Made by a program: the position numbers and the translations under genes. A stretch of DNA of 50,532 nucleotides from assembly GCA_048939015.1 (NCBI GenBank), contig JBHLPW010000041.1:1-50532 (forward strand). Reading direction: 5' to 3'. Under the pieces are notes generated by a model. It saw only the letters and a list, made by a program, of their open reading frames with translations, ran no database searches and was not told where the DNA came from. Below, piece by piece: positions 315 to 15,733 of the stretch. The stretch comes from Promethearchaeota archaeon. GTDB lineage: Archaea > Asgardarchaeota > Lokiarchaeia > Sigyniarchaeales > SOKP01. The stretch's first letter is position 1. Every line of letters starts with the position of its first letter.

Positions 315-1241
315 TTGATGGGAAAAAAATTGGATTCAACAAACTCTGACCAAAAAACCCAACCTGAAAACAATGTCATTAAAGAAGAAATTAGTTTAAA
401 TTTACGCTTATGGTTACCTTTATTCTATGTCATTTATTATTGCTCTTTTCTAATACCTGGTATTATTTTTATGCTATTTATAATGTTTTTTTATTTGCCA
501 TATTTCTTAGAAATAAGAAATTTTTTTTCCCTTTTTACGAATATACCGTCCCTTATAGCTTCTTTAACGTTACCTATTGTGATAATAGTATGTTATTTAA
601 TCCATTTGTTTATTGTTGCTTTAATTACTCGATTGTTTTGGAGCTACTCAGAAAAAAAGTCTCCCTCTAAATCGGGCATCATTCCAAGAAATATCCCAAG
701 CAAAACACTAAATTTTTATCATTTTCGGAGTTTTATTATTAAATATCCTAAAAACGCATTTTCTCGTGGGCCTTTTCCCTGGTTATTAAAATGGATGTAT
801 AATTTTGTAGGTACTAATCAAATAGGAAAAGGATCTGTAATAGAAGAACAGGTTGCGGGAGATAGATTTGTAGAAGTAGGAGAAAATTCTTATATCGGGA
901 CAAATCCTGGGATTAGTTCGCATTCAGTAGATGGAATATTCGGGAATATCTCATTTGCAAAAGTAAAAATTGGAAATAATGTCACTGCTGCAGGATTTAA
1001 CTGTTTTGCTCCAGGTATGGATTCTGGAGATAACTCATGGTGGCTACCGATGACAGGTGCAACAAAATATAATATTATGAAAGGAGATAATTACTATTAC
1101 GGTACACCTCTTAGAAAGATTTTTAAGAAACGTGTAATGGAATATCTTCAAATTTCAGAAGAGGATTTAAAGAAAGGAGAAGAATTATCTAATACTTTGG
1201 AATTGTCAAAAAAGAAAAAAAAGGAGAAAAAGTTAAGATAA
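315..1241 (+). CDS. Membrane LbH (hexapeptide-repeat) acyltransferase-like protein, module A (Pls/NRPS terminal-domain-like)
   Basis: Two N-terminal hydrophobic helices, then SPSKSGIIPRN, then LbH repeats (IGKGSVI, VEVGENSYIG, SSH, VKIGNNVT, YYYGTP). Clearly paralogous to the N-halves of 10605..12431 and 12930..14786. Confidence 0.75.
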   Translation: MMGKKLDSTNSDQKTQPENNVIKEEISLNLRLWLPLFYVIYYCSFLIPGIIFMLFIMFFYLPYFLEIRNFFSLFTNIPSLIASLTLPIVIIVCYLIHLFIVALITRLFWSYSEKKSPSKSGIIPRNIPSKTLNFYHFRSFIIKYPKNAFSRGPFPWLLKWMYNFVGTNQIGKGSVIEEQVAGDRFVEVGENSYIGTNPGISSHSVDGIFGNISFAKVKIGNNVTAAGFNCFAPGMDSGDNSWWLPMTGATKYNIMKGDNYYYGTPLRKIFKKRVMEYLQISEEDLKKGEELSNTLELSKKKKKEKKLR

Positions 1242-2122
1242 TGGAACTCAATGTAAGAAATGATAAGGCTGTGGATTATACTATTGATTTTGTAACCACT
1301 AGTGCGATTAGTAAAATTGGTTATAAATTTCTAGCATTATATATACCAATTTTATGGGTTTCTGGATATATGGCTGCAACCGTATTTTTCGATGTATCAC
1401 GTTATATCCCATGGTATATTAATATGTTTTTAATACCTGTCTGGTTATTCATTTTATATTTTATTTTTGTATTTGGTATCGCCATTTTTACAAAAGCCTT
1501 TTTGCTCATTATAAATATGGTGCATAAGCCTAAGGAAGGTGTATTTAGAGCAGAAGAAGGTGATAAAGACTACGAATTCTGGAGGGTAAGAGTAGAACTT
1601 AAAAAGCTTGTCTTTTGGTTTATGAATAATGGTCCCATAACTTGGATAGTAATGTGGGGTTTTAGATGGATGGGTATTAAAGTGGATTTTTCAAGTCATA
1701 TGCAAGATGCTTGGGCGGATGGAGGATTTATAGAATTCGGTAGAAACGTTACCGTAGGTCAAGGTGCTGTAGTAATGAGCTCAATGGTAATAGGTAAATA
1801 TTTAATAATTAAAAAAGTAGATCTTGGGGATTACAATGTTGTTGGAGGTTTATCACTTATTTCCCCTGGTACTATTATGGGCAAAGAAACTATCATTGGG
1901 GCTTTTTCTGGTACAATTCCAAATCAAAAATTAGAGTCTGGATGGGTATATCTAGGTCCAAACAATGCTAGGAAATTAAAACCAAATAAATTTGCTGAAC
2001 AGAGAAGAGATTTAATATATGAAAAGCATGTTGATGATGAAGTGAAAATTAAAGTCACACAAGAAGTGAATATTGAAGATGAAAAGAAAGATCTTTTAAA
2101 TAACCATGGTGAGGATGAATAA
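1241..2122 (+). CDS. Membrane LbH acyltransferase-like protein, module B
   Basis: DFVTTSAIS, two TM helices, HKPKEGVF..DYEFW, FIEFGRNVTVGQGAVV, ISPGTIMG, WVYLGP, EVNIEDEKK. Start overlaps the upstream stop (TAATG). Paralogous to the C-halves of the fused genes. Confidence 0.75.
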   Translation: MELNVRNDKAVDYTIDFVTTSAISKIGYKFLALYIPILWVSGYMAATVFFDVSRYIPWYINMFLIPVWLFILYFIFVFGIAIFTKAFLLIINMVHKPKEGVFRAEEGDKDYEFWRVRVELKKLVFWFMNNGPITWIVMWGFRWMGIKVDFSSHMQDAWADGGFIEFGRNVTVGQGAVVMSSMVIGKYLIIKKVDLGDYNVVGGLSLISPGTIMGKETIIGAFSGTIPNQKLESGWVYLGPNNARKLKPNKFAEQRRDLIYEKHVDDEVKIKVTQEVNIEDEKKDLLNNHGEDE

Positions 2123-2124
2123 TC

Positions 2125-2973
2125 ATGTCAGTACCTTCAAGTTTAAAAGTAGGACCTAATACAACTCTCCTTTTAGCAAAAAAGAGATATCTTGTCTTCT
2201 ATATTTTTCTTATCTGGATTAGTCTTTTTTCAATTCAATTTGAATTCTGGGTACTGTGGATCCTGTATGAATCAAAATTTATTCACTTTTTATTGCTCCT
2301 CCCTTTAGTTGTTTTTATAATGTATTTAACTTCAATTTTAGTATCTTTAATCTTCGCTAAAATCATTCTTATTATTGTAAATCTTATTCATAAACCCCGT
2401 GAAGGGGTATTTTTAAGGCATCATTCAAATAAAGATTATAAATATTGGAGTTTAAGAAACACAATAAAAAAATGGCCAATTTGGTTATCACATAAGTTTC
2501 CTTTTCCTTTTATAGATAATTTATGTTTTAAAATGTTTGGCGTACGAACTAAATTGTCCAGTTCCTTATTTGAAGGATGGGTAGATACTGAATTTATCGA
2601 ATTCGGAAAAAATGTAGTTGTGGGACAAGGAGCTATTGTTCAGTCTGCAATCATAGTTGGAAATCTATTTATCATAAGAAAAACAATCATAGAGGATAAT
2701 GTTGTTATTGGAGCTCAGAGTGTTATTATGCCTGGAACACATATGAAAAAGAATTCAATTTTAGGAGGTCATTCTCTAACCACGGTAGGTCAAGAAATTG
2801 AAGAGGGTTGGATTTATTTAGGGGCTCCAGCAAAAAAATTTAAAAAGAATGTATTTCTTGAAGACGATTTGGAAGAAATTATACGCAAACAAGGAGAGAA
2901 ACAAGTTAAAGCAAAAATCAGTGTTGAAGAATTATATACGGTACGTAAAGATAAAGAAACCAAGCTTGAATAA
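2125..2973 (+). CDS. Membrane LbH acyltransferase-like protein, module C
   Basis: Two TM helices, HKPREGVFLR..DYKYWSLR, FGKNVVVGQGAIVQS, IEDNVVIGAQSVIMPGT, WIYLGAPAK. Close paralogue of 14783..15733. Confidence 0.78.
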   Translation: MSVPSSLKVGPNTTLLLAKKRYLVFYIFLIWISLFSIQFEFWVLWILYESKFIHFLLLLPLVVFIMYLTSILVSLIFAKIILIIVNLIHKPREGVFLRHHSNKDYKYWSLRNTIKKWPIWLSHKFPFPFIDNLCFKMFGVRTKLSSSLFEGWVDTEFIEFGKNVVVGQGAIVQSAIIVGNLFIIRKTIIEDNVVIGAQSVIMPGTHMKKNSILGGHSLTTVGQEIEEGWIYLGAPAKKFKKNVFLEDDLEEIIRKQGEKQVKAKISVEELYTVRKDKETKLE

Positions 2974-3019
2974 AAAAAATCTTTGCTTATAAATATTATA
3001 TTCTTAAGGTAAACTAAAT

Positions 3020-3814
3020 ATGAAAGTTGGTTATATTCAGTCATCTCCAGTATTTGGAGATAAAAAGAAGAATTTTGAAGAAATTGAAAAGCTTATATCA
3101 AATTTAAGAGCAGATTTAATTGTTTTGCCAGAATTATTTGCAACGGGATATACTTTTACGTCTAAAAAAGAAGCAGAATCTTTAGCAGAAGATCTTGAAG
3201 GTGAAACAGCTCATTTTTTAATTAAAATCTCCCAATCAACAGGAGCTATTGTTGTTGGAGGATATATTGAAAAAGATCACCAGAAGATCTATAATTCTGC
3301 AATGATTGCATCAAAAAATGGAGTCATTGACTCTTATAGAAAAATACATTTATATTTCAAGGAAAAAATGTGGTTCTCCCCCGGAGATAGACCATTAAAA
3401 GTATATGATATTAATGGAGTTAAAATAGGTATTATGATTTGTTTCGATTGGATTTTTCCAGAAACAGCACGTATTCTAGCAATCTTAGATGCTGATATCA
3501 TTGCTCATCCAGCAAATTTAGTACTTCCTTATTGTCAAAAGGCTATGGTCACGAGAAGTTTAGAAAATCGGGTATTTAGTATAACTTCAAATAGAATTGG
3601 AGAAGAAAAAAGAGGAAGGGATTATTTTAGATTTACAGGAAGTAGTCAGATAACTTCTTTTAATGGTGAAATTTTATCATCTGCTCCTAATGATAAAACC
3701 TATGTTGATATCATAGATATTGATATTCAGAAAGCTCGAAATAAAAAACTAAATGAATTTAATGATTTATTTAAGGATCGTCGAGTAGAGTTATATAAGA
3801 CCATTGTTAAGTAA
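3020..3814 (+). CDS. Carbon-nitrogen hydrolase (nitrilase superfamily amidase)
   Basis: Catalytic E-K-C triad motifs LPELF, YRKIHL, MICFDWIFPE. Confidence 0.93.
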   Translation: MKVGYIQSSPVFGDKKKNFEEIEKLISNLRADLIVLPELFATGYTFTSKKEAESLAEDLEGETAHFLIKISQSTGAIVVGGYIEKDHQKIYNSAMIASKNGVIDSYRKIHLYFKEKMWFSPGDRPLKVYDINGVKIGIMICFDWIFPETARILAILDADIIAHPANLVLPYCQKAMVTRSLENRVFSITSNRIGEEKRGRDYFRFTGSSQITSFNGEILSSAPNDKTYVDIIDIDIQKARNKKLNEFNDLFKDRRVELYKTIVK

Positions 3815-3837
3815 AAATAAACAATCCTTTTAATTGT

Positions 3838-4731
3838 ATGAAAATTGGATATCCTTGTATAAATTTATCTTTAGAATGCAGAAGTAGTAGAACTTTTCGG
3901 TTAAAAAATTATTCCGAAGAAAAGCTCATAGATACCATTGAAGGCAATTTAAACTGCTTACTGAAAATATTAGAATTTAACTTTAACAATAGTCTTTTGT
4001 TTTTTCGAATTACTTCAGATTTAATTCCATTTGCTTCTCATCCAATTATGAAATTTAATTGGCAAGATCATTTTAAATCTAAATTTCGGGAAATTGGTAC
4101 TTATATAAAGAAGAACTCCATGCGTATTACTATGCATCCGGGTCAATATACTGTTCTTAATTCTAAGAATGAGAAAGTGGTCCAAAATAGTATAAAAGAA
4201 TTGAAATACCACGTTGATGTTTTAGAACTATTAGGTTTAGACTCAACAGCGAAGGTAATGACCCATGTGGGAGGTGTCTATGGAGATAAGAACAATAGTA
4301 TTAAACGTTTTCTCCAAATATATACAACTCTCAGTGATACCATAAAGGAGCACTATATAATTGAGAATGATGATAAGAGTTACAATATAAAGGATTGCTT
4401 AAAAATCAATGAGAAGATAGGAATTCCAATTGTTTTCGATTCATATCATCATTTTTGTTATAATCTAGGAGAATCTTTAGAAATAGCTATGGAACTTATC
4501 AATAAAACTTGGAAAAAGTCAGATGGGATTCCTATTATACATTACAGCTCTGAACACCCAAATAAAGGTAAATATAGTCATGCTGATGAAGTAAACCTAA
4601 ACCATTTTAGTGAATTCTTAAAATTAACAAAAAAATTCAATTTTGATCTAATGTTCGAAATTAAAAATAAAGAAAAGAGTGCTTTACTTGCATTAAAATA
4701 TCTAATTAATGATAATCGCTTTAATAAATAA
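3838..4731 (+). CDS. uvsE: UV DNA damage endonuclease
   Basis: KIGYPCIN, FFRITSDLIPFASHP, RITMHPGQY, HVGGVYGDK, IENDD, FDSYHH, HYS, HAD, DLMFEIKNKE. Confidence 0.95.
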   Translation: MKIGYPCINLSLECRSSRTFRLKNYSEEKLIDTIEGNLNCLLKILEFNFNNSLLFFRITSDLIPFASHPIMKFNWQDHFKSKFREIGTYIKKNSMRITMHPGQYTVLNSKNEKVVQNSIKELKYHVDVLELLGLDSTAKVMTHVGGVYGDKNNSIKRFLQIYTTLSDTIKEHYIIENDDKSYNIKDCLKINEKIGIPIVFDSYHHFCYNLGESLEIAMELINKTWKKSDGIPIIHYSSEHPNKGKYSHADEVNLNHFSEFLKLTKKFNFDLMFEIKNKEKSALLALKYLINDNRFNK

Positions 4732-4779
4732 TGGATATGTATTAGATTTAATTTACGATAAATTTTTAAAAAAAAAAGT

Positions 4780-5262
4780 TTGATGTTATTGATGAAAATT
4801 GTTAAATTACCAAGAATGGATAATAGGGAAATAAAAGAAACAATTAATTCGCAAAAATTATGTAGAATTGCATTCATAGATGATAAATATCCTTATATTG
4901 CACCATTTCAGTATGTCTGTATAAATGATGAGCTATATTTTCATTTTACTAATTATGGCAAGAAGAAGAAGATCCTCTCAAAAAATACAAATGTGTGCGT
5001 TTCTATAGAAAATTTCGAACCGGATCTTAGTAGATATTATTTTATATCGATGCAAGGCAATTTAGAAGTAGTTGAAAATATCGATTTAAAAGCGAAAGTC
5101 ATTTATCAAATGAAAAATTCTGCCGGTAGTAATTATTCAGAAAATTTCCTTTCAGTGCATGGTTTTGATAAGAAACTTGGATGGGAAGGATTTGTAACGG
5201 AAGACCAACTGATATATAAATTCATTCAGTCAAAAGATACAATTGGATTAAAGTCTATTTAA
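4780..5262 (+). CDS. Pyridoxamine 5'-phosphate oxidase-like flavin-binding protein (NimA-like)
   Basis: LCRIAF..PYIAPF..LYFH...GKK..L..N.NVCV split-barrel signature. True start may be the ATG at about 4792. Confidence 0.82.
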   Translation: MMLLMKIVKLPRMDNREIKETINSQKLCRIAFIDDKYPYIAPFQYVCINDELYFHFTNYGKKKKILSKNTNVCVSIENFEPDLSRYYFISMQGNLEVVENIDLKAKVIYQMKNSAGSNYSENFLSVHGFDKKLGWEGFVTEDQLIYKFIQSKDTIGLKSI

Positions 5263-5319
5263 AAATCTAATAACTTTTTAGTTTAATATTTCATAAAAAT
5301 TTATTTTAAAAGAATAATT

Positions 5320-5389
5320 TGATTTGGACAAGTGTGGCCAACTTTGAAGAATAAAATCTCATTTTTATTATTTTATTCCCTCCAAATCA
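5320..5389 (-). promoter_or_regulatory. Structured 3' UTR of the selenoprotein gene (candidate SECIS-like element or terminator)
   Basis: Perfect 9-bp inverted repeat UGAUUUGGA/UCCAAAUCA enclosing an 11-bp GGGAAUAAAAU/AUUUUAUUCUU stem with an A-rich loop. It starts directly after the stop codon. Confidence 0.45.
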
Positions 5390-5863
5390 TTATTTATTAA
5401 TTTTTTTTAGAACTTCTAAAATTTCCTCGTTTTCAGGAATATCATGCATATTTTTACCATAGTATGCATATTGAATTATCCCTTGCTTGTCAATTACCAA
5501 TAAACCAGGCATCCGTCCCAATTTGATTAACCTTATTTCTTGTTTTAACATTTCAGCTACCTTCTTTGATTCGTCATAAAAAACAGGATACTTTCGTGCA
5601 TATTTTTGTTCCATTTTTTTTGCGTTATTTTCGTTATCTACTAGTATCGGATATAAATACCCATCCAATTCTTCAAATTTTTCTAGATCTTTTCTTAATC
5701 TAGCAGCATGCCACCGACAGTAAGGTCAATTAATGTCTCTAAATAACACAATTATTACATTTTTTTTATTTTCAAACTCTCTGATGTTGATTGTTTCGCC
5801 TCTAGAGTTTGGTAAACTAAACTCAGCAATTTTAGTACCAACTAAATTGAATTTATCTTTCAA
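5390..5863 (-). CDS. Peroxiredoxin-like (AhpC/TSA, thioredoxin fold) selenoprotein with UxxC motif, 157 aa
   Basis: The ORF track gives only 5390..5668. The same frame extends upstream through one TGA (5726-5728) to a TTG at 5863: MKDKFNLVGTKIAEFSLPNSRGETINIREFENKKNVIIVLFRDIN-U-PYCRWHAARL...PGLLVIDKQGIIQYAYYG...DIP. Confidence 0.88.
5694..5724 (-). promoter_or_regulatory. Hairpin immediately 3' of the in-frame UGA (candidate recoding element)
   Basis: mRNA UGA-C-CUUA(CU)GUC-GGUGG-[CAUG]-CUGCU(A)GAU-UAAG can pair as a 12-bp interrupted stem with several G-U pairs. Confidence 0.4.
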
Positions 5864-6139
5864 TTTGACGTCACTTTGGTTTTTATTTATATTTTAAATA
5901 AAGAATAAATAAATATTGTTTAATTATATATTCCTTTAAAATTATAAATTTAAATCCAAGTTTACCTAGTAGGATTTTTAATAATAGGATTAATACTGGC
6001 TGTTTGTTATATATATATAATTTTTTTTATATTTTATTAATAATTTTTACTTTTTTTTCTAGATTTTTAAGAATATAGTCTTGTTATTTTATAATTTCGA
6101 GAAGTATTAGTTATAATCTAATTTTCAATATTTTTAATT

Positions 6140-6979
6140 ATGAACTCTATTGATAAAAATGAAGAAGGTTGGTTAATACCAAAATCTCCAATCACATTTG
6201 AATACTTAAAAAGATTCAATCGTAATATGGGTATTTTACATTTAATACAGGGGTTACTTATGGTTCTATTTGGTTTTTTGCCTCAGCTTGCCTTTTCCAG
6301 AGACATATACACATTTTATCTTAAATTTGAACTCGTAGGTCCAGATTTTATTATCTCACCTAACCCAACTGTACTCTTTGTCTTTAGCGCTTTAGGAGCA
6401 TTTGTTGGTTCCTTTTTATTGATGTCTGCTATTGCTCATCTATTAATTGCTTACCCACTAAATAAAAGTTATGTTAGAAATTTAAAAAAGGGAATAAACA
6501 AAGTACGTTGGTTTGAATATGCACTTTCAAGTTCAGTGATGATATTCTTAATAGCTATTTTTTTTGGAGTCTGGGATTTCTGGTCATTGTTTATGATTTT
6601 TGTCTCGAATGCTCTGATGAATATGTTTGGCTTGATGATGGAATTATATAACGTATATACGAGAGAGAAAGGTGAAAAAGTTAAATGGACCCCATATTAT
6701 TTAGGCGTCATAGCCGGAGCTGTTCCCTGGATCGTTATTACCGCTTATTTTATAAGTACTGAAACAATTGGAGGAGAAGTGCCATTATTTGTATATTGGA
6801 TTTACGGTATCGAATTGTTTTTCTTTAATACATTTGCAATCAACATGATCCTACAATATAAAGGAGTAGGTAAATGGAAAGATTATCTATACGGTGAAAG
6901 AGTATATCAAATTCTAAGTCTTGTATCTAAAACATTTCTAGCGTGGCTTGTATTTGGTGGAGTATTTAGTCCAACATAA
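6140..6979 (+). CDS. heR: Heliorhodopsin
   Basis: Seven TM helices; N.xMGILHLIQG, SAIAH, RWFEYALSSSVM (counterion Glu), FNTFAINM, YLYGERVYQILSLVSKTFLAW (retinal-binding Lys). Confidence 0.95.
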   Translation: MNSIDKNEEGWLIPKSPITFEYLKRFNRNMGILHLIQGLLMVLFGFLPQLAFSRDIYTFYLKFELVGPDFIISPNPTVLFVFSALGAFVGSFLLMSAIAHLLIAYPLNKSYVRNLKKGINKVRWFEYALSSSVMIFLIAIFFGVWDFWSLFMIFVSNALMNMFGLMMELYNVYTREKGEKVKWTPYYLGVIAGAVPWIVITAYFISTETIGGEVPLFVYWIYGIELFFFNTFAINMILQYKGVGKWKDYLYGERVYQILSLVSKTFLAWLVFGGVFSPT

Positions 6980-6993
6980 AATAATAACTAAAA

Positions 6994-7013
6994 TTTTTTT
7001 CTTTTTTTTTTTT
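6994..7013 (+). terminator. Oligo-T archaeal-type terminator
   Basis: Long T tract just after the heliorhodopsin stop, between convergent genes. Confidence 0.5.
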
Positions 7014-7021
7014 ATAAAAAT

Positions 7022-8662
7022 TTAAAGTTCCAAAACATATATTGGCCATTTTTTCAAAATACCTTTAGGGTTTTTCCCGTTTCTTACTTTATTTAAAATA
7101 TCGGATCGTGTTGCTAAGAAATCTATTGGATAAGATTTGATTAATTCTATTTGAATTTCTTTAGTTAAAATAGCTTGTTGAAAATTTTCATTTTTAATAC
7201 AATTCACCAATATATCACTATAATTTTGTGAATTTGAACATTTTGTATTCTCTTGTGAATAAAGATATAATATTGATTTGGTATTCGCAGAAGCATTATG
7301 ATTTACTAAAAGAAGTGAGTCAATATCTATAGCACAGTTCTCTTTCAAACAATTTAGTAGCAATCTTGGATTTAAAATTTCGAAATTCGGAAAAGTAAAA
7401 AAATCTCCTACATATACTTTATAATTTGAGGGTATAAGAACCTCTTTTGAAAAATTTATTGGATATTTTAATTCAAAACTCGATCTTAATATTTGACCAT
7501 CAATTTGTGGAAGCCCTTCTTGGTCTTTAATTGATATAACATCCCCTAAATCTATATTTATTAATACTTCTGAATTATGAAGACGAGAAACATAAAGCTC
7601 ACCAATGCTATTTTTTGTTCTAGAAACTGCTTCTTTCTTTCCTTTATGTTCTAACACTGGTAATGTTAAGGGAAAGATGTACATTCGATTCGAACGTGAT
7701 ATTTCAAAATCTCCTTTATTAATGCTTGCCGCAAATGGTCCAATCTCAGATGCCACATAAAGGTTGGTAAATTTCTCTTTCCCTTCCTCCCATTTCATAA
7801 ATTTGCGAATTAAGTTCCAATCTAATTTTGATAAAGAACTAATACTAAAAATTAAAGTTGCCCCTGATAATTTTTGGGATAGTTCATTCTGAATTTGTTT
7901 TGTAGCATCAAGTAATCCATTTTTTTCTATTTTCAACAAGAAATCTTCAAGTTCAGAGTTTTGATTTTTATTTATCAAATCAAGTGATCTTCTTATTCCC
8001 TCTTGGAGTCTATTAATATCTGCCCATCCTAAAATTGTTATAGCGGGAGCGGAAATAACTGAGATATCATCCATTGTAAGAATTTTAGCTATAATCTCTA
8101 AATTCCTAGAATTTTTATATTCATAGAACGAATATGATCTTGGTTTAATAATAGAAAGCATGATCCGTTGAGAAAATTCTGAAGAATAGAGTGATACGTA
8201 CTTATTACCATCGAAAGTATTAATTCCATCAAATTTTAGTCTCGAAGGTACAAAAATTATAGCAGATGATTTTGAATCTAAACCGCTGGATTCAAATATT
8301 GCTTGCATACCAGGAGCCCATTGTCTCTTTACAACATCCTCTCCCATATAAAACCATTTAAGCATAGATAGCTTACTGTTTGTAGTCCCTGAAGAATGAC
8401 AAAAAATTAACGAGTTATTACCTTCCTGACTTTTCAAAAAGTCCTCTAAATTTATTGAAAAACTTCTTGATTCAGTGGTTTCAGACCTTAATCTTTCGAA
8501 GATATCTTCAACAGATGATAAACCCGATAGTTTCAGAGTCATTTCCTCATATTCTTCTCGAGAACTAATATCAAGCCACTTTCTCCATTTCGTTTTTTGA
8601 ATGTTGGAGAAATTCTTATCGAAAATTTTTTGAGTCTCTAAATCAAAATCGAACGTATTCAA
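7022..8662 (-). CDS. GH3-like / ANL-superfamily adenylate-forming enzyme
   Basis: Three adenylation motifs in the expected order: HSSGTT, LYVASE, IDLGD. These correspond to GH3 SSGTS, YASSE and YRxGD. Confidence 0.65.
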   Translation of the reverse strand: MNTFDFDLETQKIFDKNFSNIQKTKWRKWLDISSREEYEEMTLKLSGLSSVEDIFERLRSETTESRSFSINLEDFLKSQEGNNSLIFCHSSGTTNSKLSMLKWFYMGEDVVKRQWAPGMQAIFESSGLDSKSSAIIFVPSRLKFDGINTFDGNKYVSLYSSEFSQRIMLSIIKPRSYSFYEYKNSRNLEIIAKILTMDDISVISAPAITILGWADINRLQEGIRRSLDLINKNQNSELEDFLLKIEKNGLLDATKQIQNELSQKLSGATLIFSISSLSKLDWNLIRKFMKWEEGKEKFTNLYVASEIGPFAASINKGDFEISRSNRMYIFPLTLPVLEHKGKKEAVSRTKNSIGELYVSRLHNSEVLINIDLGDVISIKDQEGLPQIDGQILRSSFELKYPINFSKEVLIPSNYKVYVGDFFTFPNFEILNPRLLLNCLKENCAIDIDSLLLVNHNASANTKSILYLYSQENTKCSNSQNYSDILVNCIKNENFQQAILTKEIQIELIKSYPIDFLATRSDILNKVRNGKNPKGILKKWPIYVLEL

Positions 8663-8725
8663 TTCAAAACCAATATAAATTTATGTAAGAAAGAAGGAAA
8701 AAAAAAATAAATAATTATGTTAAAA

Positions 8726-9268
8726 TCATATAGAATGCGTTATAATACCATAAAGACCAGACTCAGAATCTAGAAATAATTGTATTGGTGGAGGAAAATA
8801 TGTGAATATCGCAAATATTACGCCAAATCCAATAAATATCACCCAAGATACATAATTATACCATTTTGATAATTGTTCTCTTGTCATGATTTTATAACTT
8901 ACAAATTGACCAATTATCACACCAATTACAAAACTTAAAATATCTATAATAAGTAATTCTGTTCCTAATATCGCTGTATAAGAATAAAAAACAATCAATA
9001 TCGTACTAATAGCCAATATAAATGAAATAGTTATTCCTAGAATGAAATTCTTCGCTTCTTCTTTAATAAAATTATATTCTATTAATGAAAATATGATTAA
9101 TGGCCAATATGGCAGTTTAAGATGCTCCCACACACTTTCATTAACTGGAAAGAATGGTGCTATTGGTATCCAGTAATTTAAGATCTCAAACATAAAATGA
9201 AATAAAGCCCCAACTACAACAACAAATACAATTCCTAGTAATTCCCATGTTAAAATTTTATTCTTCAT
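8726..9268 (-). CDS. DUF6512-like integral membrane protein
   Basis: GALFHFMFE, PVNESVWEHLKL, FYSYT, FTYFPP; about five TM helices. Confidence 0.7.
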   Translation of the reverse strand: MKNKILTWELLGIVFVVVVGALFHFMFEILNYWIPIAPFFPVNESVWEHLKLPYWPLIIFSLIEYNFIKEEAKNFILGITISFILAISTILIVFYSYTAILGTELLIIDILSFVIGVIIGQFVSYKIMTREQLSKWYNYVSWVIFIGFGVIFAIFTYFPPPIQLFLDSESGLYGIITHSI

Positions 9269-9466
9269 AATTTTGCTCCTTCATTTTAGATTCGATATTA
9301 TATAACTAAAGAATGTCTTTTAAAGTAGGAGTTCTGATGATCTATATCCGTATAATAATAAAAAAAGTGTTGTTTACATTATATAAACTTTATAGGAAAA
9401 TGGATTAATTATAAACTATACTGATACAATTTTAATTATAATTTCTAAACGAAAAATTAAGATAAA

Positions 9467-10477
9467 ATGATGAAGGCTGCTATATTTAATGGTAAAGAAA
9501 TCAAAATTGAAATGACCAATGAACCTAATATTAATGATTCTCAAGTATTAGTTCATGTAAAAGCAGTTGGTATATGTGGAACAGATATTGCTATTATACA
9601 AGGAGATTTACCAACAAGTACCCCGATTATCTTAGGTCATGAATTTGCGGGGGATGTGGTAAAATTGGGTAAAAATATTGAGGAATCTTGGCTTGGTAAA
9701 CGAGTTACTTCCGAAATTAATGCCAATATTGATTTTAATTGTTATTATTGTAGACAAGCTCAATATACACAATGTGTATCTCGAAAGGCAATTGGTATTG
9801 ACATCGATGGTGCTCTTGCAGAATATATCGCATTAGATACTTATTTATTACATGAGATACCAGTTGCAATGAGTTATGAAGAGGCTACCTTTATTGAGCC
9901 TCTCGCTGCTGCATATCAAACTTTTGAAATGATGCCTCTTGATGAAAATGACCAAACAATGGTAGTATTTGGACTTGGAAAATTGGGATTACTGATTACT
10001 CAAGTAGCTTTTTCAAAAGGATTAAAATTAATTGTAGTGGATGGTTCAGATAAAAAACTTCAATTAGCAAAAAAATTTGGAGCATATCAGATCCTGAATA
10101 GACTTAAAATTAAAGACATTCCAAAGGAAGTTAAGAATCTCACTGATGGACTAGGAGCGGATATAGTGGTCGATGCAACCGGTAACCCTAATGTTCTCAA
10201 TGATGTTATTGCATGTTGTAGAACTCGTGGAAAAATTCATATAAAGAGCACTCATGGTCTTGAAACTCCTATTAATCTAACTGAAATTGTAGTGAGAGAG
10301 CTCACTCTTTATAGTAGTCGATGCGGACCTTTTGACAAGGCAATCGATGGGTTAAGATCTGGAAATATAAAAGTTAAGGATTTAATCTCAAAAAAATATA
10401 ATTTAGATGAGATACATGAAGCCTTTAATTCTTATAGTATAAGTCGTGATCACATTAAAACGCTCGTTCTATTATAG
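9467..10477 (+). CDS. Zn-dependent medium-chain (MDR) alcohol dehydrogenase
   Basis: GICGTD, LGHEFAG, D-x2-CYYC-x7-C structural Zn site, FIEPLAAA, GLGKLG, SRCGPF. Confidence 0.92.
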   Translation: MMKAAIFNGKEIKIEMTNEPNINDSQVLVHVKAVGICGTDIAIIQGDLPTSTPIILGHEFAGDVVKLGKNIEESWLGKRVTSEINANIDFNCYYCRQAQYTQCVSRKAIGIDIDGALAEYIALDTYLLHEIPVAMSYEEATFIEPLAAAYQTFEMMPLDENDQTMVVFGLGKLGLLITQVAFSKGLKLIVVDGSDKKLQLAKKFGAYQILNRLKIKDIPKEVKNLTDGLGADIVVDATGNPNVLNDVIACCRTRGKIHIKSTHGLETPINLTEIVVRELTLYSSRCGPFDKAIDGLRSGNIKVKDLISKKYNLDEIHEAFNSYSISRDHIKTLVLL

Positions 10478-10604
10478 CGCAAGAATACCATTTATAAACG
10501 ACGAAATTACATGATCATAAATAAAACATTTAATTTTTTAGAAAATTTTAATTAATGCATAAATAATTAAAAGCAGAAAATAATATACTAAAGAAAGGGA
10601 AATT

Positions 10605-12431
10605 ATGGATAGCAGAGAAGAAACATCGAGTGAGAGTATTCCTAGGAAGCGCTCCATTCGAGAGGAAATTGAAACCCAATATTTTTGGTATCTTTTTGTG
10701 CTTTTTTCAATTTTTTTAGCATCATTACTTATTCCTGCTATTATCTTCATAGTATATGTTGTATTCTTTTTTCTGCCTTACTTTCTAGAAGCTACTAACT
10801 TTTTCGCTATTTTTACACAGTTTAAGCCATTTATAGCTTTAATCTCCATGCCATTAGTTCTTATTGGTTGCTATCTTATTCGATTATTTTTTATAGGATT
10901 GATAACCCGTGGTTTTTGGAGATTAGCCGAAAAAAGATCTCCAAGTAAAGAAGGGATAATTCCAAGAAATTTTCCAAGCAAAACTTTAAGCTATTATCAA
11001 CTTAAAGGTTTTATGATAAAATATGGAAAGAATGCGTTCATGAAAGGCCCTTTTGCATGGCTAGGAAATTGGTTTTTTAATTTTATAGGCGCTAGCAATA
11101 TCGGGAAAGGTACTACTTTTGAAGAATCCCCTAGTAATGATAAATTTATTGAAGTGGGAGAGAATTCCTATATCGGAGTTAATTCTGCTTTAGCTAGTCA
11201 TATTGTTGATGGTGTATTTGGTAATATTAACTACTTTAAAGTAAAGACAGGAGATAATTTTACTGCTTCGGCTAGTGTTGTATTAGCACCTGGATCTGAG
11301 GCTTATGAAAATTCTTACCTACTTCCTTTAGCAGCTACCCCTAAACATAGTGTAATAAAAGGAAATAATTATTATTGGGGAATGCCGCTAAGAAAAATAT
11401 TCAAAAAAAAGATTATGAATTATTTAAGAATAAAAGAAAAGGATTTAGAGAAAAATAAAAATATTAGTAGTTATCGAGACAAAAAATTATTAAAGAAATT
11501 AAAAGTCAAGAAGTTTTTAGAACAACAGGAGTCTAAGACAAAAAAACAAGAAATAATCGAGAAAAGTGAAAGATATTATAATCAAAATAATATAGATGAA
11601 GAAAATCTAAGAATTGACTTTACCACAAGTAGCGCAATTTCAAGAGTAAACATGAAGTTTTTAGCTATATATGTCCCAATTTTTTGGTTATCTGGGATGC
11701 TAGATACAGCAATCTTCTATGCTTTCACTTCCTCTGTCCACAATTGGCTTTTAATGGCTTTCTTCTTACCTGCTATATTAATCATTATGTGGTTTGTTTT
11801 CATTTTTGGCTGTTTTATCTTTAGTAAACTTATACTGATATTAATTAATTTGATACATAAACCCAAAGAAGGAATATTCAAGGCAGAAAAAGGGAACTCT
11901 GATTTTGAATTTTGGTGTGCTCGAAAAGAATTAAAAAAAATAGCTTTTTGGCTAATTAGAAATTGGCCACTTCCTTGGATGGATATTTTAGCGTTCAAAT
12001 GGTTTGGAATTAAAATGAGCTTATCAAGTACTCTATGGGACTCCTGGACTGATGGTGAATTTATTCAATTTGGGCGCAGAGTAATTGTTGGGCAAGCCGC
12101 TACTGTTATGAGCAGTTCAATCATCGGTAAATATTTAATAATAAAAAAAATCATTCTTGGCGATTATGTAGTTATTGGGGGGCAAGCTATCGTTTCTCCT
12201 GGTACTATAATAGGTAAGGATTCGGTTGTTGGGGCTTTAAGCACGACAAACTATGATCAAGTTCTCGAACCAGAATGGATTTATTTTGGAATTCCGGTAA
12301 TTAAAATGAAACCAAATAAATATGCTGAAGGAAGACGTAACATTCTTGTGAAAAGGAATGTTGATGAAGAAATAAAGTTTGAAGTTGAACATGAAGTAAA
12401 TATCGATGAAGATAAGAAAGAATTGGTTTAA
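10605..12431 (+). CDS. Fused membrane LbH acyltransferase-like protein, modules A+B
   Basis: N-half aligns by eye with 315..1241 (SPSKEGIIPRN, IGKGTTFEE, LASH, YYWGMP). C-half aligns with 1241..2122 (DFTTSSAIS, HKPKEG, EVNIDEDKK). Confidence 0.78.
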   Translation: MDSREETSSESIPRKRSIREEIETQYFWYLFVLFSIFLASLLIPAIIFIVYVVFFFLPYFLEATNFFAIFTQFKPFIALISMPLVLIGCYLIRLFFIGLITRGFWRLAEKRSPSKEGIIPRNFPSKTLSYYQLKGFMIKYGKNAFMKGPFAWLGNWFFNFIGASNIGKGTTFEESPSNDKFIEVGENSYIGVNSALASHIVDGVFGNINYFKVKTGDNFTASASVVLAPGSEAYENSYLLPLAATPKHSVIKGNNYYWGMPLRKIFKKKIMNYLRIKEKDLEKNKNISSYRDKKLLKKLKVKKFLEQQESKTKKQEIIEKSERYYNQNNIDEENLRIDFTTSSAISRVNMKFLAIYVPIFWLSGMLDTAIFYAFTSSVHNWLLMAFFLPAILIIMWFVFIFGCFIFSKLILILINLIHKPKEGIFKAEKGNSDFEFWCARKELKKIAFWLIRNWPLPWMDILAFKWFGIKMSLSSTLWDSWTDGEFIQFGRRVIVGQAATVMSSSIIGKYLIIKKIILGDYVVIGGQAIVSPGTIIGKDSVVGALSTTNYDQVLEPEWIYFGIPVIKMKPNKYAEGRRNILVKRNVDEEIKFEVEHEVNIDEDKKELV

Positions 12432-12446
12432 TCTTTTGATTAATTA

Positions 12447-12842
12447 TTATCTTAACTCTAAATTCAATTCCTCCTTCAAGAATTTCCTTAGATTTTTGCA
12501 GGTTCTATTGAAAGTACCTTTTCTTTTATAAAATAGATGAGTTCGAGGACACTCCTTATCATAAATGCATTTTTTTCTTTCGAAATCAAAAATGAGAGGA
12601 TAAAACTTACAACCTTGCGGACGGTATTTATAAATATTGCATGTTTTCGAATTTTTTTCAAAAAAGACACAATAACCTGCAATATTTTTTAATTGAAGAA
12701 GATTATCTTCATTTTTGAAATAAAATTTTTGTTTAGGTATATGATTTTGGCATTCTTTCTTTATTAAATTAATATCATCCTCGGAAACAACCATTTCTGT
12801 CTCTATACAGCACTTTCCACAATCCTTACAGTTATCTGGCAT
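12447..12842 (-). CDS. YkgJ-family cysteine-cluster (Fe-S/Zn) protein
   Basis: CKDCGKCC...CVFF...CNIYKYRPQGCKFYP. Confidence 0.9.
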   Translation of the reverse strand: MPDNCKDCGKCCIETEMVVSEDDINLIKKECQNHIPKQKFYFKNEDNLLQLKNIAGYCVFFEKNSKTCNIYKYRPQGCKFYPLIFDFERKKCIYDKECPRTHLFYKRKGTFNRTCKNLRKFLKEELNLELR

Positions 12843-12929
12843 TATTACTTGTTCTTTTTATCTGAGACTAATAGTTTTAAAAGAAAAAAAAATAACTATT
12901 AAATTATAATAAGTATCAATTGTTTTTTA

Positions 12930-14786
12930 ATGAAGAAAAAATTACTGAAACCTACTGAAGAAGTTATAAAGGAAGAAGTAAGTCTTCAATTTCACTTATA
13001 TATTATCATTTTCGCAGTAATCTATTATTTTTCTTGGTTAGTCCCAGGATTTGTCTTTTGGCTTTACTTTTTTTTCCCATTTCGAATATTTTTTTTAGAA
13101 AATCCGGGAATTTTTCATCTATTTACTAATTTAAGTTCTCTTATAACTTTACTTGTTATGCCTTTGGTTATTATCATTTGCTATTTACTTCATTTACTTC
13201 TAATTGGATTGATGACAAGATTATTATGGGGAATTACTGAGAGAATTTCTCCATCCAAGTCAGGAATTATCCCGAGAAACATTAAAAGTAGAGTTGCCAA
13301 TTATTACCATATTAGAAGTTTTATGATAAAATATGGAAAGAATACATTTACAAAAGGAATATTTCCTTGGTTATCAAATTGGTTTTTTAATTTTGTAGGA
13401 TCGAACAAAATTGGTAAGGGAACGACCTTTGAGGAATCCGTAGGCAATGATAAATTTATTGAAGCGGGAGACAATTGCTACTTTGGAGTAAATTCAACCT
13501 TAGCAAGTCATCTTATTCAAGGCGTTTTTGGAAATATATCATATTTTAAAATTAAGGTTGGCAATAATGTCACTTTTGCGGCAATGTGCGGAGTTGGTCC
13601 CGGTTCAGAGCTTGATGATAATGCTTACTTATTACCATTAGCGGCTACTCCAAAACATAGCATAATGAAAGGAAATAATTATTATTTTGGAATGCCAATG
13701 CGGAAAATCTTTAGAAAAAAAATTATGAATTATCTTGATGTAGTTCCTAAAGATTTGGAAATGAGTGAAAATATTCAAGGCTATTCTAATAAAAAATTAC
13801 TTAAAGAAATTAAAGAGAAAAAAGGAGTTTTAAAAACTTTTGACGAAAAATTTGATATAGAGCCAATTTTAGGTAAACCCCCTGAAGAAGAAAAAATAGA
13901 TATAGATGATTTGACTGATCAAGACTTAATGCTTGATTTCACTACCAGTTCAGCAATAAGTCGAGTCAATACAAAATTTCTACTTGTCTATATACCAATA
14001 TTTTGGCTTTCAGGATTAGTGGTAACTATAATTTGGTATTGGTATTCTCGAAGCCAAGTTGCCACCAATTTTCAATGGGCTTTTTTCTTTTTCTTTCCAC
14101 TTGTGCTTTTTGGACTTACATATATTTTTATTATAGGATGTCTCGCATTTAGTAAGCTTTTTTTAATACTGGTTAACCTCTTTCATAGACCTAAAGAAGG
14201 GGTTTTTAAAGCTGAGATTGGGGATACTGATTTCGAATTTTGGATGTTAAGGACTGAATTAAAGAAGATTCCACTATGGTTTTTTCGTAATTCACCTTTT
14301 CCATGGACTGATGTTTTAGCTTTCAAACAATTAGGTGCTAATATGGATTTTTCAAGTCATTTAGCAGATACTTGGTGTGATTCTGAATTTATTAAATTTG
14401 GGCGCAAGGTTATGATTGGACAAGGAGCTACCTTAATGTCCTCAATGGTCGTAGGTAGATACTTATTGATAAAGAAAGTATTTTTTGAAGACTATGTAAT
14501 GGTTGGAGGACATACTACTATTTCACCAGGGACTGTCATAGGGAAAGAATCCATCATTGGTGCTTTAAGTACAAGTACTTACGACCAGTATTTAAAACCT
14601 GCTTGGATTTATTTTGGAATACCTGCTATTGAAATGAAAGAAAATAAATATGCTGAAGAAAGACGAGATATAATAATAAAACGTGAAGTAGCTGATGCTA
14701 TGAAAATGGAAGTGACCCATGAAGTTAATATCGATGAGGACAAAAAAGACTTAATTAAAACCAAAAGTGAGAGTGAAGAAAAATGA
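12930..14786 (+). CDS. Fused membrane LbH acyltransferase-like protein, modules A+B
   Basis: Full-length paralogue of 10605..12431 (IGKGTTFEES, LASHLIQG, LLPLAATPKHS, DFTTSSAISRVN). Confidence 0.78.
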   Translation: MKKKLLKPTEEVIKEEVSLQFHLYIIIFAVIYYFSWLVPGFVFWLYFFFPFRIFFLENPGIFHLFTNLSSLITLLVMPLVIIICYLLHLLLIGLMTRLLWGITERISPSKSGIIPRNIKSRVANYYHIRSFMIKYGKNTFTKGIFPWLSNWFFNFVGSNKIGKGTTFEESVGNDKFIEAGDNCYFGVNSTLASHLIQGVFGNISYFKIKVGNNVTFAAMCGVGPGSELDDNAYLLPLAATPKHSIMKGNNYYFGMPMRKIFRKKIMNYLDVVPKDLEMSENIQGYSNKKLLKEIKEKKGVLKTFDEKFDIEPILGKPPEEEKIDIDDLTDQDLMLDFTTSSAISRVNTKFLLVYIPIFWLSGLVVTIIWYWYSRSQVATNFQWAFFFFFPLVLFGLTYIFIIGCLAFSKLFLILVNLFHRPKEGVFKAEIGDTDFEFWMLRTELKKIPLWFFRNSPFPWTDVLAFKQLGANMDFSSHLADTWCDSEFIKFGRKVMIGQGATLMSSMVVGRYLLIKKVFFEDYVMVGGHTTISPGTVIGKESIIGALSTSTYDQYLKPAWIYFGIPAIEMKENKYAEERRDIIIKREVADAMKMEVTHEVNIDEDKKDLIKTKSESEEK

Positions 14787-15733
14787 GTGTACCAAATACA
14801 ATGAGAGTTGGACCTTTTACAACAAACGTACTTGTCAAGAAAAGTTATTTGATTTTATATATTTTTATTATATGGGCGAGTTTCATTCCGATACTTTTGG
14901 AATTTTGGATTTATTGGCGCTTTTTATGGAATGCAGTAAGGCCTGTTCATTTCTATACATTTCTTCCACTCTTTGCTTTTCTAATGTATTTTACTCTTGT
15001 GTTTTCAGCGATTATTATTGCGAAAATATTATTAATTATTGTCAACGTGGTTCATAAACCTCGAGAAGGTGTTTTTCTACGAATTCCTGAAGATCAAGAT
15101 TATCGCTATTGGAGTCTTAGGAGTGTTGTAAAAAGATGGCCTATTTGGCTCGCTCACAGATTTCCATTCCCTGGATTTATGGATAATATTTGTTTCAAAA
15201 TGTTTGGCGTAAAGACAAGAATTTCGAATTCTTTATTCGAAGGCTGGGTTGATGCAGAGTTCGTGAAATTTGGCAAAGATGTGGTTGTGGGACAGGGCGC
15301 AATTGTCCAGTCAGCTGTAATTGTAGGCAATCTATTGATAATCAGGAAAACTATAATTGAAGATGATGTAAGAATAGGTTCCCATGCGATAATTATGCCA
15401 GGTACTCATATTGGGAATAAATGCATTTTAGCAGCAAATTCGGTGACTACGGTGGGTCAAGTTTTAGAAAGAGGACACATTTATGCAGGAGTTCCTGCCA
15501 AAAAGTTCAAGAAAAACTATTTTTTTGAAGATGGTTTAGAAGATAGAATCGGACATGTAGAAGACGTTGAGTCGTTAAGAGAGAAATACGAAGAAATATA
15601 TACAAAAAGACATGATCAAATCACCCGTAAAGATCGCAGAGAAATCAAGAGAGAAAAGAAAGAAGATGAGAAGAAGAGATTCGATCAAGCGGCTGAAGAA
15701 TGGGAAGAATTTGATGATGGTTTCAATATTTAG
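14783..15733 (+). CDS. Membrane LbH acyltransferase-like protein, module C
   Basis: Paralogue of 2125..2973 (SLFEGWVD, VVVGQGAIVQSA, IMPGTH). ATGA overlap with the upstream gene; charged C-terminal tail. Confidence 0.78.
   Translation: MSVPNTMRVGPFTTNVLVKKSYLILYIFIIWASFIPILLEFWIYWRFLWNAVRPVHFYTFLPLFAFLMYFTLVFSAIIIAKILLIIVNVVHKPREGVFLRIPEDQDYRYWSLRSVVKRWPIWLAHRFPFPGFMDNICFKMFGVKTRISNSLFEGWVDAEFVKFGKDVVVGQGAIVQSAVIVGNLLIIRKTIIEDDVRIGSHAIIMPGTHIGNKCILAANSVTTVGQVLERGHIYAGVPAKKFKKNYFFEDGLEDRIGHVEDVESLREKYEEIYTKRHDQITRKDRREIKREKKEDEKKRFDQAAEEWEEFDDGFNI

Follow-up and report, generated by a model that had tools for sequence, protein, structure and literature searches.

Archaeal split relatives of the Pls/PosA membrane modules as probable subunits of hetero-trimeric left-handed beta-helix acyltransferases

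The epsilon-poly-L-lysine and delta-poly-L-ornithine synthetases of the Pls/PosA family, which join a diamino acid iteratively by isopeptide bonds, are non-ribosomal peptide synthetases (NRPSs) in which adenylation and thiolation (A-T) domains are fused to a membrane region, C1-C2-C3, made of three tandem modules in one chain. To our knowledge there is no agreed catalytic residue for this polymerisation domain. In the published model of PosA, pairs of transmembrane (TM) helices are followed by a beta-strand and two core helices ahead of each five-turn left-handed beta-helix (LbH), and the three LbH domains are packed as in a sugar-nucleotide acyltransferase trimer (PMC10522769). Here we analyse contig JBHLPW010000041.1 of the Promethearchaeota archaeon assembly GCA_048939015.1, a stretch of 50,532 nucleotides that we call the window, with a G+C content of ~30%, in which six co-oriented open reading frames (ORFs) encode eight modules of this kind. 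We think it probable that the six genes encode subunits of membrane hetero-trimeric LbH acyltransferases, each with one active site, that are split relatives of Pls/PosA. The six frames are open at the following coordinates:

315..1241, forward strand: P0001, module A of set 1, 308 aa; two TM helices, S-P-S-K-S-G linker, LbH, with His203 as candidate catalytic residue
1241..2122, forward strand: P0002, module B of set 1, 293 aa; H-K-P-K-E-G linker, LbH without the His; start overlaps the stop of A (TAATG)
2125..2973, forward strand: P0003, module C of set 1, 282 aa; H-K-P-R-E-G linker, LbH without the His
10605..12431, forward strand: P0004, A-B fusion of set 2, 608 aa; without a C gene of its own
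12930..14786, forward strand: P0005, A-B fusion of set 3, 618 aa; 432 homologues, those listed being ~620 aa long and 60-88% identical
14783..15733, forward strand: P0006, module C of set 3, 316 aa; start overlaps the stop of the A-B fusion (ATGA)

Translation of the first A gene may begin with TTG at 315, with ATG at 318 or at a later codon, in a frame open from 243, and the ESM Atlas entry for its protein begins at residue 6.

The original prediction, made from the letters of the window, had described eight modules of types A, B and C, arranged as separate A, B and C genes (315-2973), an A-B fusion (10605-12431) and an A-B fusion followed by a separate C gene (12930-15733). The ORF check and an alignment of the eight modules bear this out, giving three A, three B and two C modules with within-type identities of 48-63% (52% for type A). 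Type A is 17-21% identical to B and C, which are nearer to each other than to A, and P0001 is assigned to type A with 461 bits vs. 55 for the next type. Every module has a 60-80-residue hydrophobic stretch with K/R-rich segments on either side, which fits two TM helices, and then a linker motif that reads S-P-S-K-(S/E)-G in A and H-(K/R)-P-(K/R)-E-G in B and C. Hexapeptide repeats (Pfam PF00132) follow the linker, and the module ends in Y-x-G-x-P. The PF00132 score exceeds the 27-bit cut-off in four of the six proteins and is 24 bits in P0002 and 15 bits in P0001; the PF00132 matches, the AlphaFold2 (AF2) model and matches in the Protein Data Bank (PDB) to MAT, GAT, SAT and gamma-carbonic anhydrase (gamma-CA) are concordant in indicating an LbH. 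Each chain holds one or two modules, and three are reached solely per gene set. Since the same proteins recur in hundreds of records labelled Promethearchaeota, Lokiarchaeota or other Asgard, with 59-91% identity among the homologues listed for the A-B fusion and the C module, chance is excluded as the source of this pattern.

Direct comparison with TIGR02353, the Pls family model that the original prediction had put forward, is of little use, as the six proteins score 10-48 bits against a curated cut-off of 423.1 and the model gives matches in 14 of 14 control genomes; matches at this level are therefore unspecific and no evidence of membership. The similarity emerged when a profile built from 14 modules was run against 1.84 billion representative proteins, giving 9254 matches at E ≤1e-3 and 148 at E ≤1e-30. 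Among these are the long NRPS-like proteins P0379, P0381, P0389 and P0399, retrieved at E 1e-30 to 1e-33 with three matched stretches each. P0399 is a true Pls/PosA member, with 614.9 bits against TIGR02353 and an amino-acid adenylation domain.

Structure agrees with the profile search. The AF2 model of C (P0003, mean pLDDT 76.6) has helices at residues 20-47 and 52-88, a strand at 94-97, helices at 103-123 and 128-137, and then the LbH, the same order of secondary structure as in the published PosA model. In the ESM Atlas, this model matched a cluster named 'Pls/PosA family non-ribosomal peptide synthetase' with a TM-score by query of 0.66 over 217 aligned residues (spanning 1-239), PP-binding being present in 94% of the cluster members; the second nearest cluster outside Asgard archaea was a carrier-domain cluster at 0.62. 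Solved soluble LbH enzymes, in contrast, overlap the beta-helix only, and the best of them in a Foldseek search of the PDB, E. coli maltose O-acetyltransferase, reached 0.33. No solved Pls terminal domain was present in the PDB copy searched. Relatives within the module class extend to eukaryotes: a 'carrier domain-containing' cluster among the Atlas matches of the C model has Rotifera as its commonest phylum label, and a chytrid protein is described below.

The specific likeness to Pls over ordinary LbH enzymes that had been predicted is thus present in the profile search (E ~1e-30), in the secondary-structure order and in the Atlas match. The window modules are of the same module class as Pls C1-C3, of which they are relatives and not family members, and the three-module layout is common to the window sets and the C1-C2-C3 membrane region, each module comprising a TM hairpin, a beta-strand, two helices and an LbH. 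The archaeal form differs in being split over two or three polypeptides that lack fused adenylation and thiolation domains. Whereas Pls has three tandem modules in one chain, chains in the window have at most two, though one relative, P0252, has three (C-A-B). No AMP-binding or PP-binding domain was found by Pfam in the six window proteins, as expected from the original prediction, and a phmmer search found no long A-T-fused relatives of the B module, a negative that this tool makes weak evidence.

Stand-alone systems are not peculiar to archaea. Three 2TM+LbH modules without an A-T didomain also occur in proteins of 650-960 aa from Elusimicrobiota and other bacteria (P0299, P0305, P0316, P0348 and P0356; TIGR02353 168-264 bits) and in an 809-aa protein of the chytrid fungus Obelidium mucronatum (P0386). 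Unlike the Asgard sets, the bacterial triples are single polypeptides that form their own clade with their own triplication, and they carry the His discussed below in module 2. Two 700-aa 'stand-alone' proteins exceed the TIGR02353 cut-off, one of which, P0387, is labelled a partial gene call.

Several lines of evidence support a hetero-trimer of A, B and C. We compared the window with 15 loci from 15 genomes of its family, and the gene order along transcription is A, B, C in the window and in 15/15 loci, whether as three separate genes, as an A-B fusion with C or as a lone A-B gene; such conservation, which the original prediction had suggested testing across Asgard genomes, was seen here within one family. 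The exception is one locus with C directly before an A-B gene, a cyclic permutation. The lone A-B gene 5' of an A-B plus C pair is an arrangement seen again in related genomes. Natural fusions follow the same cyclic order, namely A-B, C-A (on contig C46 of the same genome) and C-A-B (P0252, 797 aa, from another Promethearchaeota metagenome-assembled genome). The genes within sets are tightly joined: stop and start codons overlap as TAATG at 1241 and as ATGA at 14783-14786, and only 2 nt (2123-2124) separate B from C in set 1. In addition, a model of the A+B+C complex with C as the partner gave an ipSAE of 0.84 (runs 0.86, 0.84 and 0.83), while the best control reached 0.38. To pass, a model must score at least 0.32 and exceed every control by at least 0.20, as this one does; in the calibration of the tool, 58 of 80 solved complexes passed, as did 2 of 110 mismatched pairs. 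The runs agree in at least 85% of contacts, with a partner pLDDT of at least 82, and the contacts involve TM helices (A 83-91 with C 27-35), linker strands (B 100-103; C 95-98) and LbH faces. The model supports, as far as a prediction can, binding of A, B and C to one another.

A different reading would have each paralogue form its own homo-trimer on a different substrate, the clustering being a product of tandem duplication. LbH acyltransferases, with active sites between subunits, are classically homo-trimeric, His-keeping singletons exist in other Asgard families and in Thermoplasmata, and the unequal gene counts of the window would suit it, but the A-B, C-A and C-A-B fusions join different types in one chain, the gene order is fixed with coupled translation, and the hetero-complex model is confident. 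Moreover, purifying selection on B and C is strong even though the LacA-type His is missing from them, with 60-91% identity across genera. We regard independent homo-trimers as very improbable.

The distribution of one histidine suggests where the chemistry would take place in such a hetero-trimer. His203 of A is invariant in 25 A-type sequences and aligns with His115 of LacA (profile alignment, E 8e-4, the position being obtained by residue count), the catalytic base of LacA. The loop after the His likewise aligns with LacA; in B and C this loop is missing and the His is replaced by S or A. GAT/MAT/LpxD-type transferases align with the LbH of A. Across 198 modules examined, the LacA-type His is present in 120: in all singletons examined, in A alone in the A+X pairs of the sister family, in the first gene alone in a second type of pair (the C76 type, below), and in module 2 alone in the four bacterial triples for which all modules were examined. 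In three Pls proteins (P0399, P0398 and P0387) a strictly conserved His is found in C3 alone, C1 and C2 having a nearby His in some sequences only. Pls and the archaeal sets are therefore alike in keeping this His strictly in one of three modules, C3 in the former and A in the latter. The motif around the Pls C3 His at the LacA His115 position is Q-T-H-L-F-E-D-R-V-M-K, and this residue is a candidate, by sequence, for the catalytic residue of the polymerisation domain. The repeated reduction to one His-bearing module appears to be the strongest comparative argument for the importance of the His and for a single site. Because singletons keep the His and multi-module forms keep it in one module, the comparative pattern predicts that the LacA-type His is the catalytic base and that there is one active site per enzyme.

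Taken together, one A, one B and one C (or an A-B fusion and one C) would form a six-helix membrane bundle, with three LbH domains packed around a pseudo-threefold axis on the cytoplasmic side and a single active site around His203 of A, the equivalent of LacA His115. B and C, having lost the His, would be obligate non-catalytic partners. A thioester, most likely acyl-CoA, would serve as the donor, and the acyl group would be passed to an amine or hydroxyl at the membrane surface. A cytoplasmic location of the LbH domains is predicted by the positive-inside pattern, as the flanks of the hairpins are K/R-rich, and the cytoplasmic A-T domains of Pls imply the same. As for the donor, no match to PP-binding (PF00550) or ACPS (PF01648) was found in the 94.9%-complete genome, while both models match in 10-11 control genomes. 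A tethered donor as in Pls is unlikely because neither a carrier protein nor a phosphopantetheinyl transferase was found in the genome, and we infer, from the analogy of other LbH enzymes, that a free CoA thioester would be used. Two A-B paralogues for which there is a single further C gene suggest that they share one C.

Membrane-attached hetero-trimers of paralogous LbH subunits have a precedent. A gamma-CA-like LbH hetero-trimer sits on the membrane arm of plant and protist mitochondrial complex I. This is an analogy only, since that trimer belongs to another LbH subfamily, has metal-dependent chemistry, is part of a respiratory complex and lacks this type of TM hairpin. It does raise the possibility that the archaeal sets are mainly a non-catalytic membrane scaffold, channel or sensor, a reading in keeping with the complex I gamma-CA-like subunits among the best Foldseek E-values in the PDB and with the loss of the catalytic His from two of three subunits. 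The strict retention of the His in exactly one subunit across several independent lineages argues instead for a maintained catalytic site. The alignment of the A LbH with GAT/MAT/LpxD-type transferases is a further point against a scaffold, which we consider improbable.

Closer in chemistry to an acyltransferase are the soluble GAT/MAT/WcaF-type enzymes (LacA, Maa and YvoF), which have the LbH fold and hexapeptide repeats in common with the window modules but are homo-trimers with three active sites and have neither TM hairpin nor linker. A YvoF-type LbH enzyme acetylates ether lipids in Bacillus and Haloferax (PMC9179154). The YvoF model (NF058585) matches the LbH part of the window proteins only, with a best E of 1.9e-14 and 18-54 bits against a 300-bit cut-off, and the window proteins carry TM hairpins, whereas YvoF is a small soluble protein of ~172 aa. 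The similarity to YvoF is generic.

The modules are widespread in the phylum and most abundant near the window's own lineage. A module was found at E ≤1e-15 in 101 of 201 sampled genomes of the phylum, and in the window's family in 41/41 genomes, usually with 10-13 or more per genome. The sister family has 4-6 per genome and more distant families 1-5 or none. Thermoplasmata and other Asgard families also have single-module proteins, Helarchaeota have two-module proteins, and stand-alone proteins with three modules come from Elusimicrobiota, other bacteria and a chytrid fungus. The literature searched contained no description of this archaeal family. Module trees (FastTree, 178 rows; quick IQ-TREE, 62 rows) place the Pls modules together on one side (SH-aLRT 92), recover a separate clade of bacterial triples (100) that has three sub-clades, and divide the Asgard modules between two clades, one A-like (92) and the other B/C-like (93). 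Sets of the sister family consist of A plus a second type, X, which groups with B and C (99). Neither the Pls modules nor the bacterial triples fall within the Asgard A and B/C clades. Pls, the bacterial triples and the Asgard archaea therefore each seem to have acquired the three-fold repeat independently, a tentative conclusion given the long branches and arbitrary root.

Genes between and around the sets were examined for clues to donor and substrate. Those with a possible bearing are:

3020..3814, forward strand: C-N hydrolase of the nitrilase superfamily, separated from C of set 1 by 46 nt; Pfam CN_hydrolase E 4e-44
7022..8662, reverse strand: P0251, 546 aa, divergent ANL (PaaK/GH3-like) enzyme; candidate donor-activating enzyme, the link being weak
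8726..9268, reverse strand: DUF6512 membrane protein (Pfam E 3.7e-27), on the same strand as P0251 and downstream of it
9467..10477, forward strand: Zn-dependent alcohol/polyol dehydrogenase; in 11/15 related loci
12447..12842, reverse strand: small CxxCxxCC (PF03692) protein between the two A-B fusions; beside A-B genes in 12/15 related loci

The C-N hydrolase scores 300 bits against NF040852, below its cut-off of 500; it adjoins the set of separate A, B and C genes in 9/15 related loci, directly behind C where this was checked by coordinates. P0251 has no sequence match in Pfam, NCBIfam or the PDB. When its AF2 model (pLDDT 68) was submitted to Foldseek, ANL enzymes, represented by PaaK-like ligases and GH3 amido synthetases, made up almost all of the listed matches; their E-values run from 1.6e-6 to 7e-4 and the probability is ~1.0, but the TM-scores are only 0.21-0.31. 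Its motifs H-S-S-G-T-T-N and Y-V-A-S-E are invariant. Homologues of P0251 are found in 24/40 genomes of the family and 9/15 syntenic loci, and DUF6512 accompanies it in all nine of these loci; P0251 is at best an optional partner. A functional tie of the C-N hydrolase, the Zn-dehydrogenase or the CxxCxxCC protein to the LbH sets is unproven, and as all compared genomes come from one family, the synteny of these neighbours may reflect shared ancestry.

The super-cluster of LbH genes also encloses a heliorhodopsin (6140-6979, forward strand; PF18761 E 8e-87), which is kept at the same place in several related genomes (L032, L033, L034 and L040). Near it are UvdE (3838-4731) and a PNPOx-like flavoprotein (4780-5262).

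The same genome holds further sets on other contigs:

Contig C46 (L001:6636-9069), reverse strand: 520-aa C-A fusion with a 293-aa B behind it, so that the A-B-C order is cyclically permuted
Contig C76 (L002:8060-9670), reverse strand: pair of 288 and 246 aa, both of the B/C-like clade; the first gene alone keeps the His
Contig C20 (L003:4459-8044), reverse strand: A-like singleton that keeps the His; directly downstream come genes for an AMP-binding enzyme (586 aa) and a PIG-L-family deacetylase

The C46 set has an MFS_2 transporter downstream and a divergent acyl-CoA dehydrogenase. The order and types of the C76 pair are conserved in the sister family (L017 and L019); it has a metallophosphoesterase downstream, and a coiled-coil protein adjoins the pair in genomes G000 and G020. 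The AMP-binding gene beside the C20 singleton was considered as a clue to a partner and set aside, as this adjacency was not seen in the two sister-family (f2) genomes examined and the window's genome has 23 AMP-binding genes; in a distant Asgard genome (L010), an AMP-binding homologue and a singleton are ~4 kb apart. The neighbours of the sets in this genome (MFS transporter, acyl-CoA dehydrogenase, metallophosphoesterase, AMP-binding and PIG-L genes) include none that is consistent, nor did those in related genomes (GT4, aconitase, adenylate kinase, Rce1-like protease and M20 peptidase) reveal a consistent partner.

These neighbourhoods bear on whether the sets might be polymerases. As a carrier-free analogue of Pls, a set would be a processive polyamide (or polyester) synthase that exports its product through the six-helix bundle, a trans-acting ANL enzyme (P0251 or another) supplying the monomer in activated form, either as adenylate or as CoA thioester. 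The sole characterised members of the module class, to which the window modules are homologous, are polymerases (PMC10522769), and the one His-bearing module, found in Pls too, suits a single site that feeds a single channel. In 9/15 related loci the cluster encloses an ANL-fold gene, a C-N hydrolase follows the set of separate A, B and C genes equally often, and AMP-binding genes adjoin both the C20 singleton and an Elusimicrobiota triple. However, P0251 is missing from 16/40 family genomes, several of them 98-100% complete, while a separate search found LbH modules in 41/41; the adjacency at C20 may be due to chance with 23 such genes in the genome and was not kept in the two f2 genomes; and the genome has no carrier domain that we could find. 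Nor do the bacterial triples encourage this view. Their neighbours (L020, L021, L022 and L026) include an SDR gene (adjacent, and fused in P0316), GT1 and dTDP-sugar genes, a 722-aa AMP-binding enzyme, or a FemAB-like gene with two small EamA genes. The GT1, dTDP-sugar, SDR and small EamA contexts point to sugar or lipid modification, with hints of glycolipid or lipid-linked glycan acylation in those bacteria. We know of no polymer from these archaea. A polymerase reading of the window sets is possible but unsupported, and we judge it unlikely; its more specific form, in which A-B-C is a carrier-independent processive synthase whose His in A adds CoA- or adenylate-activated monomers supplied by P0251 to a chain leaving through the bundle, seems to us a little less likely again.

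Several observations weigh against hetero-trimeric acyltransferases related to Pls over the whole module. In the HMMER alignments of the module profile with Pls, which span TM, linker and LbH, posterior support is low outside the LbH, and hhalign of archaeal against Pls modules aligned the LbH alone (probability 99.5, E 1.6e-22), so that homology of the TM and linker parts rests on architecture and the structural match. The LacA alignment that places His203 is weak at its E of 8e-4. B and C have an invariant linker His of their own (62 modules) and may therefore not be inert, which leaves their designation as pseudo-enzymes inferential. Because close paralogues of true partners can pass the complex test too, and because LbH trimers are common in the PDB, it cannot tell a hetero-trimer from homo-trimers; the gene numbers, moreover, depart from 1:1:1. 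Finally, gene neighbourhoods yield no consistent clue to the substrate. A hetero-trimeric A+B+C, which the original prediction had proposed, nevertheless draws support from the order and natural fusion of the genes, from their overlapping stop and start codons, from the distribution of the His and from the complex model together.

The series of singleton, A+X pair and A+B+C illustrates a route from homo-trimer to hetero-trimer. Were the sets processive synthases after all, they would make a secreted or surface polyamide new for Lokiarchaeial Asgard archaea and offer a natural split model for Pls polymerisation. In either case, a split, strongly conserved, multi-copy archaeal family may be easier to express and dissect than the Pls polymerisation domain. 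In the Asgard archaea, a group of little-known envelope chemistry that stands closest to eukaryotes among the known archaea, it also represents an abundant family of membrane enzymes.

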